A stretch of 64,000 bases of DNA from Myxococcales bacterium (lineage in GTDB: Bacteria > Myxococcota_A > Polyangia > Palsa-1104 > JAEUJZ01), in the NCBI GenBank assembly GCA_016794365.1, contig JAEUKB010000053.1, positions 2,599 to 66,598 on the forward strand, given 5' to 3'. The notes beneath the pieces were generated by a model that was not told the DNA's origin, did not search any database, and saw nothing but the letters and a program-made list of their open reading frames with translations. Both the position numbers and the translations under genes were made by a program. Shown one piece after another: positions 18,718 through 48,065 of the stretch (position 1 is its first letter; each line of letters starts with the position of its first letter).

Positions 18718-19728
18718 ATGTCTAGCCACGATCCGCACATGGAACAGCTTGTCGCCGAGATTGCCCGCCGGGTGGCCGCCCGCCTCGGTGGCTCGGCACC
18801 GCTTGTCACGCTGGGGACCGCTCCGCCACTGCGCGAGACCCCTTGCCAAGACGGACCCTCTGAACACTGCACCGCTTGTGGACTGTGTACCGTCCGCAGA
18901 CCCGAGGCCGTCCAGAACATCGTGGCGGAAGGGGCCAGCCGCATCGGTAGCGGGATGGGCACCGGACAGACGCCGGGCGACATCGCCGCAATGATCGATC
19001 ACACCCTGCTCAAGGCCGACGCGACCTCAGCAGATGTCGAAAAGCTGTGCGCCGAAGCACGTCAGCACCGCTTTGCATCGGTGTGCGTGAACACTGGCTT
19101 TGTGCCGCTCGCCAAGCGCCTGTTGCGCGGCTCTGGTGTGATGGTGTGCGCCGTGGTCGGCTTCCCGCTGGGTGCGATGGCGCCAAACGCCAAGGCCTTC
19201 GAGGCCCGCGAGGCCGTCCGCAGCGGTGCCGAAGAGATCGACATGGTGATAAACCAAGGCGCGCTCAAGAGCCGCGACTACGCCACCGTCCACGAGGACA
19301 TCCAAAAAGTGGTCGAGGCGTCCCGTCCCGCCAAGGTCAAGGTCATCCTAGAGACCGGCGCGCTCACCCAAGAAGAAAAGGTGATCGCGATCTCGCTGTC
19401 CAAGGTCGCGGGCGCTCACTTTGTAAAGACCTCGACCGGCTTTGGTCCGGGCGGTGCCACGGTCGAAGACATCGCGCTCATGCGCAAGCTCGTCGGTCCC
19501 GACATGGGCGTCAAGGCCTCGGGCGGTGTGCGGACCTGTGAAGATGCCCAGAAGATGAAGGCCGCCGGAGCCAGCCGCATCGGTGCCAGCGCCTCGGTCT
19601 CGATCGTCAAAGGCTGCGCCACCCCGAAGAGCGAAGACAAGCCCAAGCACCCGAACCGTCCGTGGCTCCGGCAGAAGCAAGAGCCCCCGACACCGCGTCC
19701 AGCAGACGGCAAGCCATCCGCTTACTGA
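18718..19728 (+). CDS. deoC: Deoxyribose-phosphate aldolase with an ~85-aa Cys-containing N-terminal extension
   Basis: Core [12 protein letters not shown]...[11 protein letters not shown]...VVGFPLGA...EIDMVIN...[10 protein letters not shown]...FVKTSTGF...VKASGGVR (the Schiff-base Lys lies in the KTSTGF context). The extension contains [15 protein letters not shown] and [15 protein letters not shown]. Confidence 0.9.
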
Positions 19729-34952: not shown

Positions 34953-35540
34953 CTACTTCTTGTCCGGTGCGGTCATCCGCAGCGCTTCAATCGCCGGAAT
35001 CGCACCGCCGCAGCTCTGCTCGTGACAAGCGCGGCAGCCATCGAGCACGCGACCATAGGCCTTGGCCGCATCGACTGGAGGGGCAGCATCCAGGGCCGCC
35101 ACGGCTTGCAGATAGCTCTGGGCCGACGCATCAAAGGCAGCGTTGCGATCCGACTGGTTCGTCGGCCAGACGCAGCGAATCTTGCGAAAGCGCGGCCACA
35201 GCGGAGCCACCTTCTCGCCTCGCTCGATCGCGGCGCGCGCCAGCTTTAGCTCCGACTGCATCGTGCGCATGTGCTCGGCCAGCTCGCTGTTTCCGTTTGG
35301 ATTGATCGCGGACGGGATCAGGTGCCCCGGACTCCCTGGAATGCCCGGCACAAGCTGGGTGTCCAGCGTACACGGAGCCTCTGCCGCCAGCGCTGCTGAT
35401 GAAGCCACTTGGCTGGGCTGCGGGGCCGATGCCACTTTGGGCTGCGCGGGACTTGCGGACGTAGCAGGCGGAGCGCTCCGCTCTGGGCAGCCGGTCAGCA
35501 TCCAGCACAGTCCGAGGCCAATAAGGAGATGTCTGTTCAC
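34953..35540 (-). CDS. Lipoprotein with C-terminal CxxCH: class II (cytochrome c'-like) haem protein
   Basis: Lipobox MLTGC, a helical body, and a single haem motif CRACHE about 25 residues from the C-terminus, as in four-helix-bundle class II cytochromes c. Confidence 0.65.
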   Translation of the reverse strand: MNRHLLIGLGLCWMLTGCPERSAPPATSASPAQPKVASAPQPSQVASSAALAAEAPCTLDTQLVPGIPGSPGHLIPSAINPNGNSELAEHMRTMQSELKLARAAIERGEKVAPLWPRFRKIRCVWPTNQSDRNAAFDASAQSYLQAVAALDAAPPVDAAKAYGRVLDGCRACHEQSCGGAIPAIEALRMTAPDKK

Positions 35541-35644
35541 GGGCTGAACCTACCACAAAGTCCTCACCACCCAGCCCCGAAGAGCCCCCGACCGCCGCTG
35601 CCGCCCAAAGACCTCTCACTAGACAGAGGAACGATCTCTTTGCT

Positions 35645-35768
35645 GGAACACTGGACCAGACCGTCATGAGGAACCCTGGATGCAAAGAGGCGGCCCGCAG
35701 CGTACGCAAGTACGTGAGGACCGCCGCTGCCGCAGACAGGGTCCGCAGTAGGTCCGGTCCTGTGTTCC
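35645..35768. repeat. Copy 1 of a ~124-nt structured intergenic element (conserved core inside a variable long stem)
   Basis: Outer arms ggaacactggaccagacc / ggtccggtcctgtgttcc. Core gtcatgaggaaccctg...cgtacGCAAgtacgtgaggacc...cagggtccgcagta. The 3' arm ends on the first base of the multicopper oxidase stop codon (minus strand). Confidence 0.85.
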
Positions 35769-37675
35769 TACTTGCCGCAGAGCATCGGATCGGGCGCGGG
35801 CGGCAGTGGATAGGCAGCCGTCGCAGCTTTGGCAAACTGGCAGCGCTTGTCGGTCGGCTTGCAGTCTGCCGAGCTGATGCACTTTCCGCCCGCATCCGTA
35901 CCCTGGCACAAGCAGCTCTGATCCCCAGGCGCGCAGATCTCCAGCAGCTCCATCATGCCTTCGTCTTCGTGGTTGAGCTTGTGGCAGTGCATCACAAACT
36001 GTCCTGTGAACTTGCTGTAATGCATCAGCAGCTCGCGCCCGCCATCTTCCGCTTGGACCCAGTAGGTGTCGCGCCAGTGCGCGAAGTTTGGCTCTTTGTT
36101 GGACCCGGTGGGACAGACCAGGAAGGGGTTGATGTGAACGTGAAAGGGGTGTCCGTCAAAGGCGCGGACTTCCCACTTTTCCGACGTTCCCACCGTCATC
36201 ACGCGATCGCTGCGATAGCCCCAGGCGCGGCGCTCATCAAAGCGGCGGCAGCTGATGTTGGGACTGGGACAGACGCAGGTCGGAAGGGAGGGATCGACCT
36301 CGTGCTGATGGTGATAGGCCGCCGGATCACACGATGCAAGCGACGGAGTGCTACCAATCGGCGGCGATCCTTCTGGGGTCGGAACCAGCAGCACTGCCTT
36401 TTGCTGCACGGTCTTTACGGTGTCGCAGGCCACTTCCATCTGCTTGCCTTCCACGGTTCCCATCCAGCGGGTGGGCTTGGCATGTGCGGTGACTGCGCTC
36501 TCTTCGGGAAGGTTGACCTCGGTCGGACTGCCCGCTGCTGGATCGACATCAATCACCGCCAGGACAGAGCCGGTCAGGTCGCGAACCCGCCGTCCGACGA
36601 GACACAGGGTCTGCTTTTCCTGCGGCATCTTGACCATCGCATCGACGCGATAACCGGAAGACACCCAGATCGTGCTGTTGCGATAAAACTGCGGCAGGGT
36701 CAGACCATCGCGCGCGATCTGGGTCAGCTCCATCGGCGAAAGGATGTCCCACGAGCCACAGTGATCATCGAGCGAGCGGTGCAGCTTGAGCCCCATCTCA
36801 TCCGGTGTGCCGCCGTAGATCATGCGCCAGCGCTCGACCTGTCCGGGGGGCGTGACGATGCGAGGCCGCAGCTTGCCGTTTATCAAGGTCGGACTGTCCT
36901 GCGTCACGGTCAGGAAGCTGTTTACAGACAGCGTATCTTCGCGACAGGACTCACCCGGCGGCAGCGGCACCGTCTGCTCGGAGTCAATCGGCACCTGATG
37001 CATCACCATCACACGCTCTTTGGACTGCGCAATGCCAGGCAGACGATCGACCGGACCCTCGATGATGAGCGCGCCGAGGGCTCCGTTGATGACCTGGATG
37101 GACGTGCTGCCGTGGATGTGGGGGTGATACCAGTTGGTGCCTGGCTCGTGGACTCCGTCTTCATCCAGATCCCAGCGATACTGCGCCTTGCCGCGCGCGG
37201 GCACCTCGATGAGGACATTGTCGCCGTAGTAGCGCGAGCCCGGCGCACAGCCATCCCCATAACAGGGCAGCTCACCGGCTGCTGTGGCGAAGTTTGGCTG
37301 TACGTGTGCGCCGTGTGCGTGCAGGTTGGTGGCGTTGAAGTCGTGACACGATCGGGTCGCGTAGCCTTCCATTCCAGCAATCTCGCGGTAGTCGGATCGC
37401 TGTAGGTCGTTGTGTAAGGTGACGCGGACCTTGCGATCTGTGCCTTCGGGAATGCGCAAGGTAGGACCGGGTATGTGCCGGTTGTAACCACGCAAGCAGA
37501 AGCGCTTGTCTCCGATCTGAACCTCGGTGGGAGCCAGGTGCAGCTCGTACACACCCTGCGCATTCGGAGCCAGGCTCGGTGGCTCCTCATACGGGACAGT
37601 TGCAGTCTCACTGCTACAGGCAAGTGACAGTACAGACAGCAGACCCAGCATCCAAACAGACCGATCGATGGTCAT
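35768..37675 (-). CDS. Multicopper oxidase (three-domain laccase-like), lipoprotein
   Basis: RBS GGGGGAGG before the ATG at 37675. Signal LLSVLSLACSS. Copper sites HAHGAHV, WYHPHIHGST, HPFHVHINPF and HCHKLNHEDEGMM. The 579-aa antisense ORF is rejected. Confidence 0.9.
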   Translation of the reverse strand: MTIDRSVWMLGLLSVLSLACSSETATVPYEEPPSLAPNAQGVYELHLAPTEVQIGDKRFCLRGYNRHIPGPTLRIPEGTDRKVRVTLHNDLQRSDYREIAGMEGYATRSCHDFNATNLHAHGAHVQPNFATAAGELPCYGDGCAPGSRYYGDNVLIEVPARGKAQYRWDLDEDGVHEPGTNWYHPHIHGSTSIQVINGALGALIIEGPVDRLPGIAQSKERVMVMHQVPIDSEQTVPLPPGESCREDTLSVNSFLTVTQDSPTLINGKLRPRIVTPPGQVERWRMIYGGTPDEMGLKLHRSLDDHCGSWDILSPMELTQIARDGLTLPQFYRNSTIWVSSGYRVDAMVKMPQEKQTLCLVGRRVRDLTGSVLAVIDVDPAAGSPTEVNLPEESAVTAHAKPTRWMGTVEGKQMEVACDTVKTVQQKAVLLVPTPEGSPPIGSTPSLASCDPAAYHHQHEVDPSLPTCVCPSPNISCRRFDERRAWGYRSDRVMTVGTSEKWEVRAFDGHPFHVHINPFLVCPTGSNKEPNFAHWRDTYWVQAEDGGRELLMHYSKFTGQFVMHCHKLNHEDEGMMELLEICAPGDQSCLCQGTDAGGKCISSADCKPTDKRCQFAKAATAAYPLPPAPDPMLCGK

Positions 37676-37811
37676 GGTGACCTCCCCCAAGCAGCACGTC
37701 GATGGGAACAGAACTGGAGGATAACCGGCAGACTCACTCACCCAACATGGCCAATTGTGATCACTTGGTGGTCAGATCTTGAGCTGTGACAGGTGCGTTG
37801 GCAGGGCTTTT

Positions 37812-37937
37812 AGAACACCTCACAAAACCGTCATGAGGAACCCTGGAAGCAAAGAGGAGGACCGGAGCGTACGCACAAGTACGTGAGGACCGACGATGCC
37901 GCAGCCAGGGTCCGCAATAGGCTTTGTGAGGTGTTCT
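37812..37937. repeat. Copy 2 of the ~124-nt structured intergenic element
   Basis: Outer arms agaacacctcacaaaacc / ggctttgtgaggtgttct, with the same core as copy 1 but a gcacaa loop in the central hairpin. The 3' arm ends on the first base of the stop codon of gene 37937..38362 (minus strand). Confidence 0.85.
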
Positions 37938-38362
37938 TAGAGCGTGCTGGATTTCGCTAGCCGCCTGCGCTGCTCTGCGATCCACGCGCGCGCTTCTGAC
38001 TCCGTAGCCGTAAACACCGTTGGCGTGTGATCGCCCCGGAACAGCCGGATCGCTGCGATGGCCAAGCTCGATACGGCCCGCGCCGCCACACTGCCACCAA
38101 ACAGGGCAATGCCCGAGATCCGGTTCCGCTTGGACCACTCAGCGATGTGGCGACGGGCTTCGGGCGCTGTCTTTTCTGCTTGGGTCAGATCGAGCAGAAA
38201 GAACAGCCGACCGTGCGCGGCCAAGACCTCGGCCATCACCACCGTCACTTGCAAGACCTCTGCTTGGACGTGATCGCCGATCTGGGTCAGCACAACGATG
38301 TCGTCTTCGACCGTCAGCTTGTGGCGACCAATCATCATGGGAAACCTGGGGGACTCGCTCAT
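37937..38362 (-). CDS. Hypothetical protein, STAS/SpoIIAA-like fold suspected
   Basis: 141 aa. The pattern VEDDIVVLTQIGDHVQAEVLQVTVVMAEVLAAHGRLFFLLDL...GIALFGGSVAARA resembles small STAS-like domain proteins; this is an unverified recollection. Confidence 0.6.
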   Translation of the reverse strand: MSESPRFPMMIGRHKLTVEDDIVVLTQIGDHVQAEVLQVTVVMAEVLAAHGRLFFLLDLTQAEKTAPEARRHIAEWSKRNRISGIALFGGSVAARAVSSLAIAAIRLFRGDHTPTVFTATESEARAWIAEQRRRLAKSSTL

Positions 38363-44624: not shown

Positions 44625-45161
44625 ATGCAGCCACGTATTCGCAGACGGATGATTGCCCTGCTACTGCCGGTTTGGCTGGTGGCCTGCGGCAAAAATCCCG
44701 AAGAGAAAGCTGCCGAGATCGGCAAGGAAGTCGATTTGGCACTTGGCTCGCAGCGCTGGGAGCAGGCCGAAAAGAAGGCGCAGGAAGTGCTCGCGATTGC
44801 CAAGATCAGCGACGCGACGCGCGATCAGGCACGGCTCAAGCTGGAGCAGGCCAAGAGCGAGCAGCAAGCCAAGCTTCACTACCAGCGCTTCGTTGGAGCC
44901 GCCGATACCGATCACGACACCGCGATGGCTGCCTATCGCGACATGGCCCAGGGCTCGTACTATCGGACGCTCGCGAAGGGTGAGCACGATCGCATCTTGC
45001 CGAGCTACGTCGCCGACCACATGGAAAAAGCCACCAGCGCATCCTTTAACGGACGCTGTGCCGACGCCAAGCAGCAGCTTCAGCTCGTCCTCGATGTCGA
45101 TCCGCAGAACGCCAAGGCCGTCGAGCTAAGCAAAAAGCCCTGCACCAAAAAAGCCGACTAA
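44625..45161 (+). CDS. Helical (TPR-like) lipoprotein, unknown function
   Basis: MQPRIRRRMIALLLPVWLVACGKNPE lipobox followed by a helical repeat body. The stop codon overlaps the 5' arm of structured element copy 3. Confidence 0.75.
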   Translation: MQPRIRRRMIALLLPVWLVACGKNPEEKAAEIGKEVDLALGSQRWEQAEKKAQEVLAIAKISDATRDQARLKLEQAKSEQQAKLHYQRFVGAADTDHDTAMAAYRDMAQGSYYRTLAKGEHDRILPSYVADHMEKATSASFNGRCADAKQQLQLVLDVDPQNAKAVELSKKPCTKKAD

Positions 45162-45283
45162 GAACGTCGAACCAAACCGTCATGAGGAACCCCGAGTGCC
45201 AAGAGAAGGCCCGGAGCGTACGAAGTACGTGAGGACCGACGATGCAGCAAGCGGGGTCCGCAGTAGGTTTGATTCGGCGTTCT
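45161..45283. repeat. Copy 3 of the ~124-nt structured intergenic element
   Basis: Outer arms agaacgtcgaaccaaacc / ggtttgattcggcgttct. The core has ggaaccccg...cggggtcc (a compensatory change relative to copies 1 and 2) and a gaa loop in the central hairpin. It fills the whole gap between two convergent stop codons. Confidence 0.85.
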
Positions 45284-47783
45284 AAAAGTCTGCGCGCAGT
45301 CCGAGGTTCGGAAAGAAAGGAAGACCCGTCACGGGCGCAGACTGAGAGAGCTGTCTGCCACCATAGGCGAGCTGCTCGGTATTTTTGTTGGCATAAAGAT
45401 TTTGCAGATCCAGATACAGCGCAAACTTCCAGCGATTGAAGACCCAGGTGCGATCGATTCGTAGATCGAGCTGATGAAAGTCCGGCAAGCGATCGGAATT
45501 GAACGTACCCACAATGGGAGTCCAGGTCTGGCTGCCGGTGTCGCGGATTCCACCGAGGACGGGCGTTGTGGGATTGCCAGTGATGTAGCGGAAGCGTAGG
45601 CCGACCTCGAGTCCGAGGCGTTGCCAAGGGAGTCGGTAGCTCGCGATCAGCGTCAAGATGTGGGTCTGATCGTACGAAAACAGTCGCCATGGCTCATCGG
45701 GAGAGTCCTTCCGTTCGCTGCGTGAAACGGTATAGGACAGCCAGCCAAACAGTCCCTTCCACAGTCGCTGACGCAGCAGAAAGTCTCCGCCCACTGTGCG
45801 TCCGATTCCGAAGTTGCTGTAGCGCGTATAGGGATCGGTCACGATCAGCGAACGGAACTCTCGATAGAAAAACTGTCCTTGCGCGCTCAGCGTGGGGGTG
45901 AGATCGGACTCAAATCCGGTGACGTAGGTGGTGCTCTGTTGTTGATCGAGCTGAGGATTCCCATAGCTTAGCGAGGCTTCGCGCACCGCAGGAACTTGGT
46001 GAAAGGAGCCGATTCCGAACTTCCAGCGCAGCCAGCGCGGAATGATCTGAAATGACAGAAACAGCCGAGGCTCTGGAGTCACAAAGTTGTTCGAGAGCGT
46101 TCCTTCATACGCTTGCTGAAACAACATGGAGAGACGGAGCTGCGGCGACACGATCAGCCGACCATTCCAGAACTCAAAGTGCGAAATGAGATACGGCGCT
46201 ACGCTCACCGAGTGGAGGACAGTCTGTTCCGCAATCGATTGCTGAAGCGTAGAGGGTGCATCTGAACTACCCCGATCGGAGCTGCCATCACCCAGCGTTC
46301 CGGCCAGCCCTTGGGTCGTCTGCACATCGTATTGAGTATGATATCCAGCCAGCTCGATTCCTGTGGTCAAGCGGACAAAGGGAGGGAGTCTCTGCTGAAG
46401 CTCTGCGCGCAGTCCGTAATCGACCGACGTACTGTCTGTGGACAGCGGAATGCCACCCAGACCCAGCTCTCCAGTTGTGGCGCGCTGGACGGTGCCGCCG
46501 AAGTAGGGCTGCACGGTAAGCACGCTCTGTGCAGAGAAGCGATGAATCCAGCGCAGGATGACCCGACTAAAATAGGAGTGTGTATCCAGCGCAAGCTGCA
46601 CAGCTGGATCGGGTGCATCGTTGCGGATGCTGATTCTGTCTGTTGCACCCAAGATGAAGACATCCAATTCATTGCGAATGCTCGGACGATAACGGAGTGC
46701 AAGCTGATAGTCCCAGTACGAAGGTGAGAGCTGATAATCAGACACCTTGAACAGCGGCAAAAACGCAGAGATCCAGCTGACGCGGGCCCCCGCAAAGAAG
46801 TGAAGGTTCTTCGTGATCGATCCTTCCAGCGTCACTGCTCCATCGATAAGATCGAGCGACACCGATCCATGCAGCTTGTCCGAGCTGGGCGCACGGAGCT
46901 TGATGTCCACCAGGCCTCCCAAGCGACGACCGAAGTCCGCACCGTACGCACCGGGCTTGAACGATACCTCGCTGACAAAGTCCCCCGGAATGACAGAGCG
47001 CAGACCCGCTGCATGAAACGCGGACGGAATCTCGACTCCTTCTGCATAGACCGCAGTGTCTCTGGGCGCAGATCCCCAGATGATGAGCTGACCACTTGTG
47101 ACCGGCACGCGTGCGACGCCAGGCAGGTTCTGAATCGCTTTGATCGGATCGTTTTGGTTGCCAGGAATCCGCGTCAGCTCACTTGTATCCAGGACGTGCT
47201 CGGCGGCACTGCGGGCCTGCTGGGTTGCGCGCACGACCGCACCAAACGGAACCTTGCGCAGCGGTGCATACAAGACCAAGCCTCTGCGTAGTGGCACGCG
47301 GATGAGCTCGCGGACTTCCGTGGGTTCGATCAGCGGCCCTCGTAGTGCGATGCGATAATCGCCCGCTGGTACAGCTGGAAACAGAAAGCGACCGCTGGCA
47401 TCCGTGCTGGTCTGCTGGATCGGCTCAGGCTGTCCGAAAGTAGACCGCAGGAGCTGTACTTGTACGTCTTGCAGCGGATCGCGGTTCCCTTGCGTAAGCA
47501 CCGTTCCTGCCAGGCTACTCTTTCGTGATGTGGCAGACAGGGGCGCTCCGTTTGCGGCAAAACCCGACGGTGCGGGCTCCGGTCCTTCTCCGATGGGGGC
47601 GGGCTCCTGTTCGTCTCCAGCGGGTGCGGGCTCTGGTCCTTCTCCGATGGGGGCAGGCTCTGGTCCTTCTCCGGCGGGTGCGGGCTCTGAATCGTCGGGC
47701 GCTGCGGAGTGTGCCGCGTACGTCTCACGAACAGACAAAGTCAAACAGGACAGAAAGACTGTAAACAGACTGATCCCGCGCAC
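45282..47783 (-). CDS. TonB-dependent receptor-like outer-membrane protein with a CarboxypepD_reg-like domain and an N-terminal Pro/Glu repeat
   Basis: GTG start with GGGGGAA RBS. Signal peptide MRGISLFTVFLSCLTLSVRETYA, PAPxGEGPEPAP repeats, LAGTVLT...DASGRFLFPAVPAGDYRI, plug block IPGNQNDPIKAIQNLPGVAR, a long beta-barrel, and a terminal LGLRADF. Confidence 0.85.
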   Translation of the reverse strand: MRGISLFTVFLSCLTLSVRETYAAHSAAPDDSEPAPAGEGPEPAPIGEGPEPAPAGDEQEPAPIGEGPEPAPSGFAANGAPLSATSRKSSLAGTVLTQGNRDPLQDVQVQLLRSTFGQPEPIQQTSTDASGRFLFPAVPAGDYRIALRGPLIEPTEVRELIRVPLRRGLVLYAPLRKVPFGAVVRATQQARSAAEHVLDTSELTRIPGNQNDPIKAIQNLPGVARVPVTSGQLIIWGSAPRDTAVYAEGVEIPSAFHAAGLRSVIPGDFVSEVSFKPGAYGADFGRRLGGLVDIKLRAPSSDKLHGSVSLDLIDGAVTLEGSITKNLHFFAGARVSWISAFLPLFKVSDYQLSPSYWDYQLALRYRPSIRNELDVFILGATDRISIRNDAPDPAVQLALDTHSYFSRVILRWIHRFSAQSVLTVQPYFGGTVQRATTGELGLGGIPLSTDSTSVDYGLRAELQQRLPPFVRLTTGIELAGYHTQYDVQTTQGLAGTLGDGSSDRGSSDAPSTLQQSIAEQTVLHSVSVAPYLISHFEFWNGRLIVSPQLRLSMLFQQAYEGTLSNNFVTPEPRLFLSFQIIPRWLRWKFGIGSFHQVPAVREASLSYGNPQLDQQQSTTYVTGFESDLTPTLSAQGQFFYREFRSLIVTDPYTRYSNFGIGRTVGGDFLLRQRLWKGLFGWLSYTVSRSERKDSPDEPWRLFSYDQTHILTLIASYRLPWQRLGLEVGLRFRYITGNPTTPVLGGIRDTGSQTWTPIVGTFNSDRLPDFHQLDLRIDRTWVFNRWKFALYLDLQNLYANKNTEQLAYGGRQLSQSAPVTGLPFFPNLGLRADF

Positions 47784-48065
47784 CGTGATGTTCCCCCAAG
47801 TGCCGAGGAATCAATGCGAGTCCGCGAAGGCCTCGTGCTGCGCTGCGCAAGCACGCTGTTTGGCTCATCACGCCGCGCCCCAGCTCCGCAGGTAACGTCC
47901 AAGGAAATGATATCACGCACAGCGGACTACGCGAGCCGGTCACCAGTGCGGTCGCGCTCCGATCTTTTCCGTCGGAAGCATCCGATCCACTGGCCTTCAG
48001 AGCACAAGATCACACCTGTCCCGACAGCACAGCCAGTTCCGTTTGCGTGTCGCTTCAGACGCTGG

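Follow-up and report, generated by a model that had tools for sequence, protein, structure and literature searches.

A family of hairpin elements sited at stop codons in Myxococcota, Spirochaetales and Alphaproteobacteria

Three hairpins in a Polyangia contig

The DNA considered here, called the window, is a stretch of 64,000 nt from a Myxococcales bacterium of the class Polyangia (GenBank assembly GCA_016794365.1, contig JAEUKB010000053.1, positions 2,599 to 66,598 of the forward strand). Within it are three copies of a repeat, and re-reading the window bore out the positions and sequences given for them in a preliminary description, together with the minus-strand stop codon that each adjoins (CTA at 35768-35770, TTA at 37937-37939 and CTA at 45282-45284 as read on the plus strand). 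Copy 1 (35645-35768, plus strand, 124 nt) has arms at 35645-35662 and 35751-35768 enclosing a core at 35663-35750, and in the core lies an apical module, GAGGCGGCCCGCAGCGTACGCAAGTACGTGAGGACCGCCGCTGCCGCAG (35687-35735), which is the portion conserved between phyla. It is placed between the stop of a multicopper-oxidase-like gene (minus-strand ORF 35768-37741, whose TAG at 35768-35770 overlaps the final base of the copy) and the next minus-strand gene. Copy 2 (37812-37937, plus strand, 126 nt; arms 37812-37829 and 37920-37937, core 37830-37919, apical module 37854-37904) comes directly after a SpoIIAA-like gene of 141 aa (minus strand, 37937-38362), the TAA of which, at 37937-37939, again overlaps the final base. 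Copy 3 (45161-45283, plus strand, 123 nt; arms 45161-45178 and 45266-45283, core 45179-45265, apical module 45203-45250) constitutes the whole spacer between two convergent genes and adjoins a plus-strand stop too: the TAG (45282-45284) of an 833-aa minus-strand ORF (45282-47783) overlaps its final two bases and the TAA (45159-45161) of a 178-aa plus-strand ORF (44625-45161) its first. The 7.2 kb separating copies 2 and 3 is conserved housekeeping synteny and includes a glutamate dehydrogenase gene with its nearest relatives in uncultured Polyangia/Myxococcales MAGs. The window is free of tRNAs, no transposase gene adjoins the copies, and no larger element bearing the same arm ends is present in the window.

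The window has exactly three occurrences of the 14-mer GTCATGAGGAACCC, and in an alignment of the three copies the mean column identity is 89%, with indels solely in the apical loop. Each copy folds, on either strand, into a single long imperfect hairpin of -55 to -78 kcal/mol (z -6.2 to -8.5 against dinucleotide shuffles, 0 of 200 shuffles being as stable). Paired cells in the alignment amount to 96%, against 30-40% in slid controls, and seven pairs have changed on both sides, a number that 0 of 500 shuffles equalled. Six of the seven are in the 18-bp closing stem; the remaining one, in the inner helix ggaacccYg/cRgggtcc, is the compensatory double change to which the preliminary description had drawn attention. 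That description also had the arms varying in sequence from copy to copy while staying complementary, of which the pairing stands and the freedom of sequence does not, since 11 of the 18 arm positions are invariant. The arm motif GAAC....AC.A.ACC is found in the window at the six arms and nowhere else; the arm ends read rGAAC/GTTCy, and the arms are equal in length and lack bulges. Immediately outside GAAC...GTTC the flanking triplets are TTA/TTA, TAA/TAA and CTG/CTA. Six-frame translation of the three copies gave no match to a protein database at E<=10, and the proposal of a non-coding family that is constrained by its structure and displays true covariation is supported.

No known RNA family accounts for the copies, as had been surmised: with Rfam 15 there were 0 matches in the whole window at the gathering score, a single spurious lncRNA match away from the copies when window 35400-38200 was scanned at E<=10, and nothing at the elements in five loci with relatives at E<=1. 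The suggestion of a terminator fell, as no site with a U-tract is predicted at the copies and they are thus not intrinsic terminators; terminator-like sites are lacking at copies 1 and 2, copy 3 has a weak one that joins an arm edge to the flank, and promoter-like sites are lacking at all three. A literature search by sequence, repeat type and hairpins of gene-transfer agents (GTAs) turned up no description of the family, prior description elsewhere remaining possible.

The copies also occur in short-read contigs of the same species (99.3-100% identity to the window), several of which end within a copy, as is usual for repeats. One such contig, L001 (9660-9705 versus window 35560-35644), is 99.3% identical over 9.7 kb and becomes fully divergent 13 nt past copy 1; 4 of its 64 differences from the window are inside that copy, 3 of those in the arms. 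For the source species no copies beyond these three are known. A search for the exact two-block core in collections of genome, metagenome and viral contigs gave nothing or two chance coding matches, the species being absent there or its copies masked.

Related MAGs offer a comparison at copy 3. Four of their loci (L006, with 88% nucleotide identity, L008, L009 and L040) are syntenic to the window as far as 45157-45160 and resume at window ~59.7-60.4 kb, lacking a 13.7-kb block (45161-58830) of ordinary metabolic genes (for a CarboxypepD_reg protein, an MGDG-synthase-like glycosyltransferase, a chromate transporter, a polysaccharide deacetylase, GFO/GMC oxidoreductases and an MFS transporter). 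Exactly at the edge of this block stands copy 3, and in L006, L008 and L040 the short spacer after the 178-aa gene, where copy 3 would be, is without the element. An 8-nt match, CGTCGAAC, between the 5' arm of copy 3 and the L006 flank may be chance. For copies 1 and 2 no orthologous empty site emerged via homologues of the 141-aa gene, the best of which is 38% identical. The L006 contig ends in a different repeat (19330-19472; GGGTGAAGACCC..., with GGGCGATGAGCAGATG twice) that is unrelated to the hairpin element.

A family with a conserved apex

A covariance model built from the three copies (R1), the check that the preliminary description had proposed, was narrow and gave weak matches only, yet these proved to be true relatives. 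They lie in two other Polyangia MAGs, and the homology is clear on reading the sequences: L033 shares the terminus GGAACAC, the box GTAGCGAGG, the centre AGCGTA-loop-AAGTACG and, ahead of the 3' arm, CCGCAGTAGG. A pattern made of such shared blocks led to a second, near-identical copy in the L033 MAG, to two Spirochaetales MAGs, one with two adjacent copies, and to two copies in Phyllobacterium bourgognense. The distant homologues reached by pattern or covariance model are L033/L095 and L096 (Polyangia MAG), L064, L086, L093 and L097 (Spirochaetales MAGs) and L098 (Phyllobacterium). BLAST with a Phyllobacterium copy then extended the family to 66 places in 34 plasmid or chromid records, of Sphingobium, Shinella, Agrobacterium vitis, Phyllobacterium, Mesorhizobium, Bosea, Novosphingobium, Rhizobium, Ensifer and Aminobacter, and the exact apical pattern to 38 IMG/VR loci; sequenced phage genomes had no copy of the element, and a window-type copy had no match to plasmids. 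The family spans Myxococcota, Spirochaetales MAGs and many Alphaproteobacteria.

Its members are rod-like hairpins of 115-200 nt with a common layout. The best-conserved part is the apical module, GAG(A/C)ACCGG(A/C)GCG(G/C)AGCGTAC-loop-GTACGTGAG(C/G)ACCGGA(A)GCGCAG, composed of two short helices, purine-rich internal loops and a CGTAC/GTACG stem. CCGCAGTAGG, which holds a GTAG motif, is present in Polyangia, Spirochaete and Phyllobacterium copies, and the end sequences differ by subfamily (GAAC..., GAGACC..., GTCTG..., GGATGTG...). A model constructed from the alphaproteobacterial copies and L064 only (R2), with no window copies in it, matches those of the window at 43 (copy 1), 27 and 23 bits, the lowest E being 1e-7 in 1.3 Mb. 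R2 further found the member in L086, which immediately follows a homologue (38% identity) of the 141-aa gene and so has the position of copy 2; the arms there are identical to those of copy 2 at 13 of 18 positions, with compensatory changes, and the apical stem is AGCC/GGCT instead of GTAC/GTAC. Some members carry insertions or substitutions of their own: a copy after a capsid gene (L135, 5010-5207) has a ~70-nt nested hairpin within the apical loop, and L098 (2215-2362) and L141 (7447-7592) have a small extra hairpin in place of the 5' CCGG strand. Just left of the hairpin element in L101 (2841-2935) is another short repeat, found in up to 10 places in Novosphingobium, Sphingomonas and Sphingobium plasmids.

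A resemblance of the apex to ribosomal RNA was considered. AGTACGTGAGGACCG, on the apical 3' strand of the window copies, agrees with AGTACGAGAGGACCG of the sarcin-ricin loop of E. coli 23S rRNA at 14 of 15 positions, with weak statistics: 23S helix 95 is the best local match in five of seven members at scores just 2-3.5 sd over shuffles, and R2 misses helix 95. The apical 5' strand of alphaproteobacterial copies, CGAGAACCGGAGCGGAGCG, resembles CGAGAGGACCGGAGTGGACG too, and this is also statistically weak.

Selection on the fold, with the variable closing and middle stems kept complementary, is evident at each depth of comparison. In the R2 alignment of 52 distinct sequences 18 of 29 pairs have changed on both sides (177 cells) and 91% of cells are paired, versus ~35% when slid, with 0 of 500 shuffles reaching any of the measures. 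In six Polyangia and Spirochaete copies, anchored at the junction, 15 of the 17 closing-stem pairs have changed on both sides with 92% of cells paired, and RNAalifold on eight diverse members gives compensatory change in 15 of 29 pairs.

Which strand folds is another matter. The preliminary description had favoured the minus strand on the basis of 3 A-C versus 1 G-T mismatches in the window arms (3 of the 5 mismatches are A-C, i.e. G-U on the minus strand), and the asymmetry of the family is the opposite. Among the pairs aligned by R2, the model strand (window plus) has 104 G-U, or 55 when an invariant apical pair is set aside, and 12 A-C. The plus strand is the more stable in 45 of the 48 alphaproteobacterial copies, by a mean of 11 kcal/mol (Wilcoxon p 5e-9), and in 8 of 9 Polyangia/Spirochaete copies, the exception being window copy 1; internal loops are purine-rich on it and pyrimidine-rich on the sense strand. 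From the G-U pairs and folding energy it follows that the selected fold is that of the strand antisense to the upstream ORF, which speaks against selection on a simple 3'-UTR hairpin of the sense strand and fits single-stranded DNA, or an antisense RNA, read by some enzyme.

Stop codons, and alleles filled and empty

Placement directly after a stop codon is general and not a peculiarity of the window. In a first set, 12 of 17 copies have a converging ORF of at least 134 codons with its stop at most 7 nt from the base of the 3' arm. A converging ORF of 100 codons or more ends between -13 and +13 nt from that same edge of the model match in 41 of the 48 alphaproteobacterial copies; ORF distances at the opposite edge are scattered, from -51 to 150. 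It is one particular arm that lands, or survives, within a few bases of the preceding gene's stop, often in operons, and in all seven of the loci with two copies both have the same orientation.

The genes in front include seven for HK97-type major capsid proteins (55-84% identical), seven from a tail family of 191 aa, five that are homologous to one another, four for tail completion, and also terminase; in the IMG/VR loci (L113-L150) the element recurs after terminase, major capsid, tail completion and ~191-aa tail genes. The copies next to capsid genes belong to different subfamilies. Those of the 191-aa group are clearly orthologous elements with compensatory changes, and in this group, as in L095/L096, the stem runs over the stop codon into the last codons. 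By gene order the alphaproteobacterial head-tail clusters are presumably RcGTA-like, that is, akin to a gene-transfer agent.

Comparison of close strains at three loci reveals the element in one and its absence in another. In Agrobacterium vitis the site between an isocitrate-lyase-family gene and an ABC permease gene is filled in S4 and CG78 and empty in F2/5, VAT03-9 and VAR03-1. The empty allele has AACGGT joined to CAGATTTT, and the filled allele has AACGGT, the element AAAAGTCTG...CAGACTTT and then CAGATTTT; the insertion point is the 3' edge of the TGA stop codon and there is no target-site duplication. In Sphingobium TomMM15 is filled and TomTYG72 empty (AAACCCG joined to CACATCCTAGGC), again without duplication. 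There, the empty allele already has the last 12-17 nt of the 3' arm, stop codon included, and this host DNA is repeated in inverted form at the far end of the 5' arm; the Sphingobium boundary is ambiguous, since a similar arm end is seen in a related copy that MI1205 carries elsewhere. The etfB-etfA spacer is filled in Ensifer adhaerens CTYH.Ch1, Rhizobium sp. WSM1274 and Aminobacter sp. SR38, where the element adjoins the etfB stop codon, and is ~140 nt shorter in the other listed records with most of the query covered, conspecific E. adhaerens included; the two empties read, E. adhaerens Casida A and S. meliloti AK57, are both without the element, and no target duplication is seen. In the three filled/empty comparisons the element alone is the ~140-nt indel, with at most 1 ambiguous nt of duplication: it comes and goes between strains by itself and leaves no target-site duplication.

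Stop-codon CTAG sites are a landing spot common to unrelated small elements: in the Sphingobium plasmid loci L108, L109 and L110 (~700-900) a ~190-nt MITE distinct from the hairpin, and with CTAG(G) duplicated at its target, is at the very stop codon that the hairpin follows in TomMM15. The Sphingobium sp. MI1205 copy has an IS3-family transposase within its 5' arm (L111, 298-1500), which truncates it.

Two claims of the preliminary description gave way here. It had argued against a MITE, and the element behaves as mobile in a MITE- or REPIN-like manner, with clean ~140-nt indels between close strains; its 3'-UTR motif of one genome was too narrow a notion for a family that is dispersed across phyla and present or absent between close strains.

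What the element may be

The reading that we prefer, at a probability of roughly 60%, is that of a non-autonomous, structure-constrained mobile element in the manner of REPIN, ERIC and Correia, which punctuates operons and is apparently an undescribed, widespread family. Its apical module would serve as the handle for a trans-acting enzyme that moves it, and movement would pass through a single-stranded folded intermediate, as with REP/REPIN or IS200/IS605-type substrates, and not through cut-and-paste by a DDE transposase. Co-transcribed with the upstream gene, the hairpin may act as a 3'-end barrier, a processing site or a partial stop, and such punctuation, proposed by analogy, would set the ratio of upstream to downstream product; the frequent site after the major capsid gene of phage head-tail clusters fits. 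Several points tell against this reading. No transposase, recombinase or reverse transcriptase is tied to the family; what has been seen is indel polymorphism and not a transposition event, and gain could be mimicked by repeated precise loss or by lateral replacement of spacers. The positions shared by diverged clusters (copy 2 and L086, the capsid group, the 191-aa group) could equally reflect long vertical retention, and the best-folding strand, being antisense to the upstream mRNA, suits a mobility intermediate better than a role in the sense message.

That last point bears also on whether mobility need be invoked at all, given that a cis-acting structured RNA of the 3'-UTR (sense strand, window minus), functioning as a stabiliser, processing site or termination-coupled regulator, could have been spread by ordinary duplication and kept by host selection. 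The constant site after the stop codon in a single orientation, the intercistronic location in operons, the recurrent positions kept in diverged head-tail clusters, the strong covariation and the three of five window arm mismatches that are G-U on the minus strand would all be expected of it. We nevertheless judge it unlikely, though it merits a hearing: clean element-only indels distinguish close strains at three unrelated loci, near-identical copies follow unrelated genes in one genome, and across the family the G-U pairs and folding energy favour the antisense strand, the sense strand having pyrimidine-rich loops and A-C mismatches in place of conserved G-U pairs. If the element is mobile, its mover is very improbably a DDE transposase acting on a classical MITE with terminal inverted repeats GAAC...GTTC and a 3-bp target duplication of TNA type. 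The triplets that flank GAAC...GTTC in the window and the 11 of 18 conserved arm positions lend themselves to such a scheme, only for the triplets to be stop codons and their palindromic partners, for the family to conserve its centre and not its ends, and for no larger element with these ends to be in the window; the three filled/empty comparisons have no duplication, and the empty sites rule out the TNA duplication.

The same absence of duplication would follow, as would a closing stem that runs into host sequence, if a SINE-like or guide-directed element inserted by priming or templating, its terminal arm, in a folded plus-strand RNA or ssDNA, pairing with the gene end, stop codon included. 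It is in keeping with this that the plus strand is the folding strand, that in Sphingobium the 3' arm end pre-exists in the empty allele with the 5' arm end as its inverted copy, that in L095/L096 and the 191-aa group the stem takes in the stop codon and the last codons before it, that the A. vitis arm end CAGACTTT resembles the neighbouring flank CAGATTTT, and that copy 3 shares its 8 nt with the L006 flank. We consider it improbable all the same: no reverse transcriptase or HUH enzyme is linked to the family, the MI1205 copy elsewhere with its similar arm end means that the Sphingobium stretch may be the element's own, the window arms are unlike their flanks, both arms are complete in the A. 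vitis insertion, and the filled/empty pairs compared number just three. As for an attC-like recombination site marking cassettes of gene plus hairpin in an integron-like system, a hairpin after an ORF with structure conserved above sequence, the gene-element-gene-element order (window copies 2 and 1, L098, the two-copy loci) and the end of the window-specific 13.7-kb block at copy 3 are reminiscent of one. Such a system is scarcely credible here, and the cassette idea was rejected: the indel is the element alone and not gene plus element, the ends do not match RYYYAAC/GTTRRRY and those of other members are unrelated to it, the arms are equal with no extrahelical bases, and copies 2 and 3 are separated by 7.2 kb of housekeeping genes in conserved order. 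Integrons are, to our knowledge, essentially absent from Alphaproteobacteria.

Set against known systems, the preferred mobile element is close to several and identical with none. REP units have a conserved 20-40 nt with a GTAG or CGTC head and form the arms of an inverted dimer around a variable spacer (PMC3733652). REP doublets and REPINs (RAYT, Y1 HUH) are likewise non-autonomous, multi-copy extragenic hairpins of ~100 nt without target-site duplication, often near gene 3' ends, and the GTAG in some members here (CCGCAGTAGG) adds to the likeness. REPINs, however, conserve the arms and vary the centre, whereas this family conserves the centre across phyla and varies the arms; REP families are lineage-specific, whereas its core is common to three phyla; it keeps much more strictly to one position and orientation at the stop codon, and no RAYT gene is linked. 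Membership of REP/REPIN was tried and failed on the varying arms (15 of 17 pairs covarying), the conserved centre and the restriction of GTAG to some members.

ERIC/IRU of enterobacteria and Correia/NEMIS of Neisseria are also imperfect palindromes, of 100-160 nt, in transcribed intergenic regions, strain-polymorphic and co-transcribed with flanking genes. They influence mRNA processing and stability. They have conserved terminal repeats, a TA duplication (Correia), confinement to one family or genus and either orientation, whereas the hairpin family has no duplication, variable ends, a single orientation and zero-distance placement at stop codons. With attC sites it has in common an imperfect hairpin after an ORF, conservation of structure above sequence, better folding by one strand and a stem whose outermost part can come from neighbouring DNA; it lacks their R/L box consensus, extrahelical bases, integrase and cassette behaviour, and its apex is conserved where theirs varies. 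Group IIC introns too insert just 3' of genes in a specific orientation without target duplication, recognizing the target partly by structure and short pairing. At 120-200 nt, however, the element is far too small for a group II ribozyme and Rfam intron models do not match it, and those introns insert after terminator hairpins whereas it sits at the stop codon.

A bolder synthesis, distinctly unlikely as a whole, would have it a new class of gene-less mobile hairpin in at least three phyla that homes to the position after stop codons by arm pairing with the gene end, inserts in a target-primed or guide-directed way via folded antisense-strand RNA or ssDNA without target duplication, and has been adopted by hosts as operon punctuation, the GTA-looking head-tail clusters of Alphaproteobacteria included.

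For RNA and repeat databases this is an unannotated family, and one that accounts for assembly breaks in these genomes. There are handles for testing: the apical module, presumably read by a protein; the filled and empty alleles that occur naturally in strains of A. vitis, Sphingobium and Ensifer that can be cultured; and the recurrent sites after capsid, terminase and tail genes, where an effect on product stoichiometry is measurable. Placement at the stop codon would be stricter than in any described bacterial repeat, and recurrence in head-tail clusters could bear on how the ratios of their products are set. If the preferred reading is right, a single small structured element has spread through, or persisted in, Myxococcota, Spirochaetota and Alphaproteobacteria.
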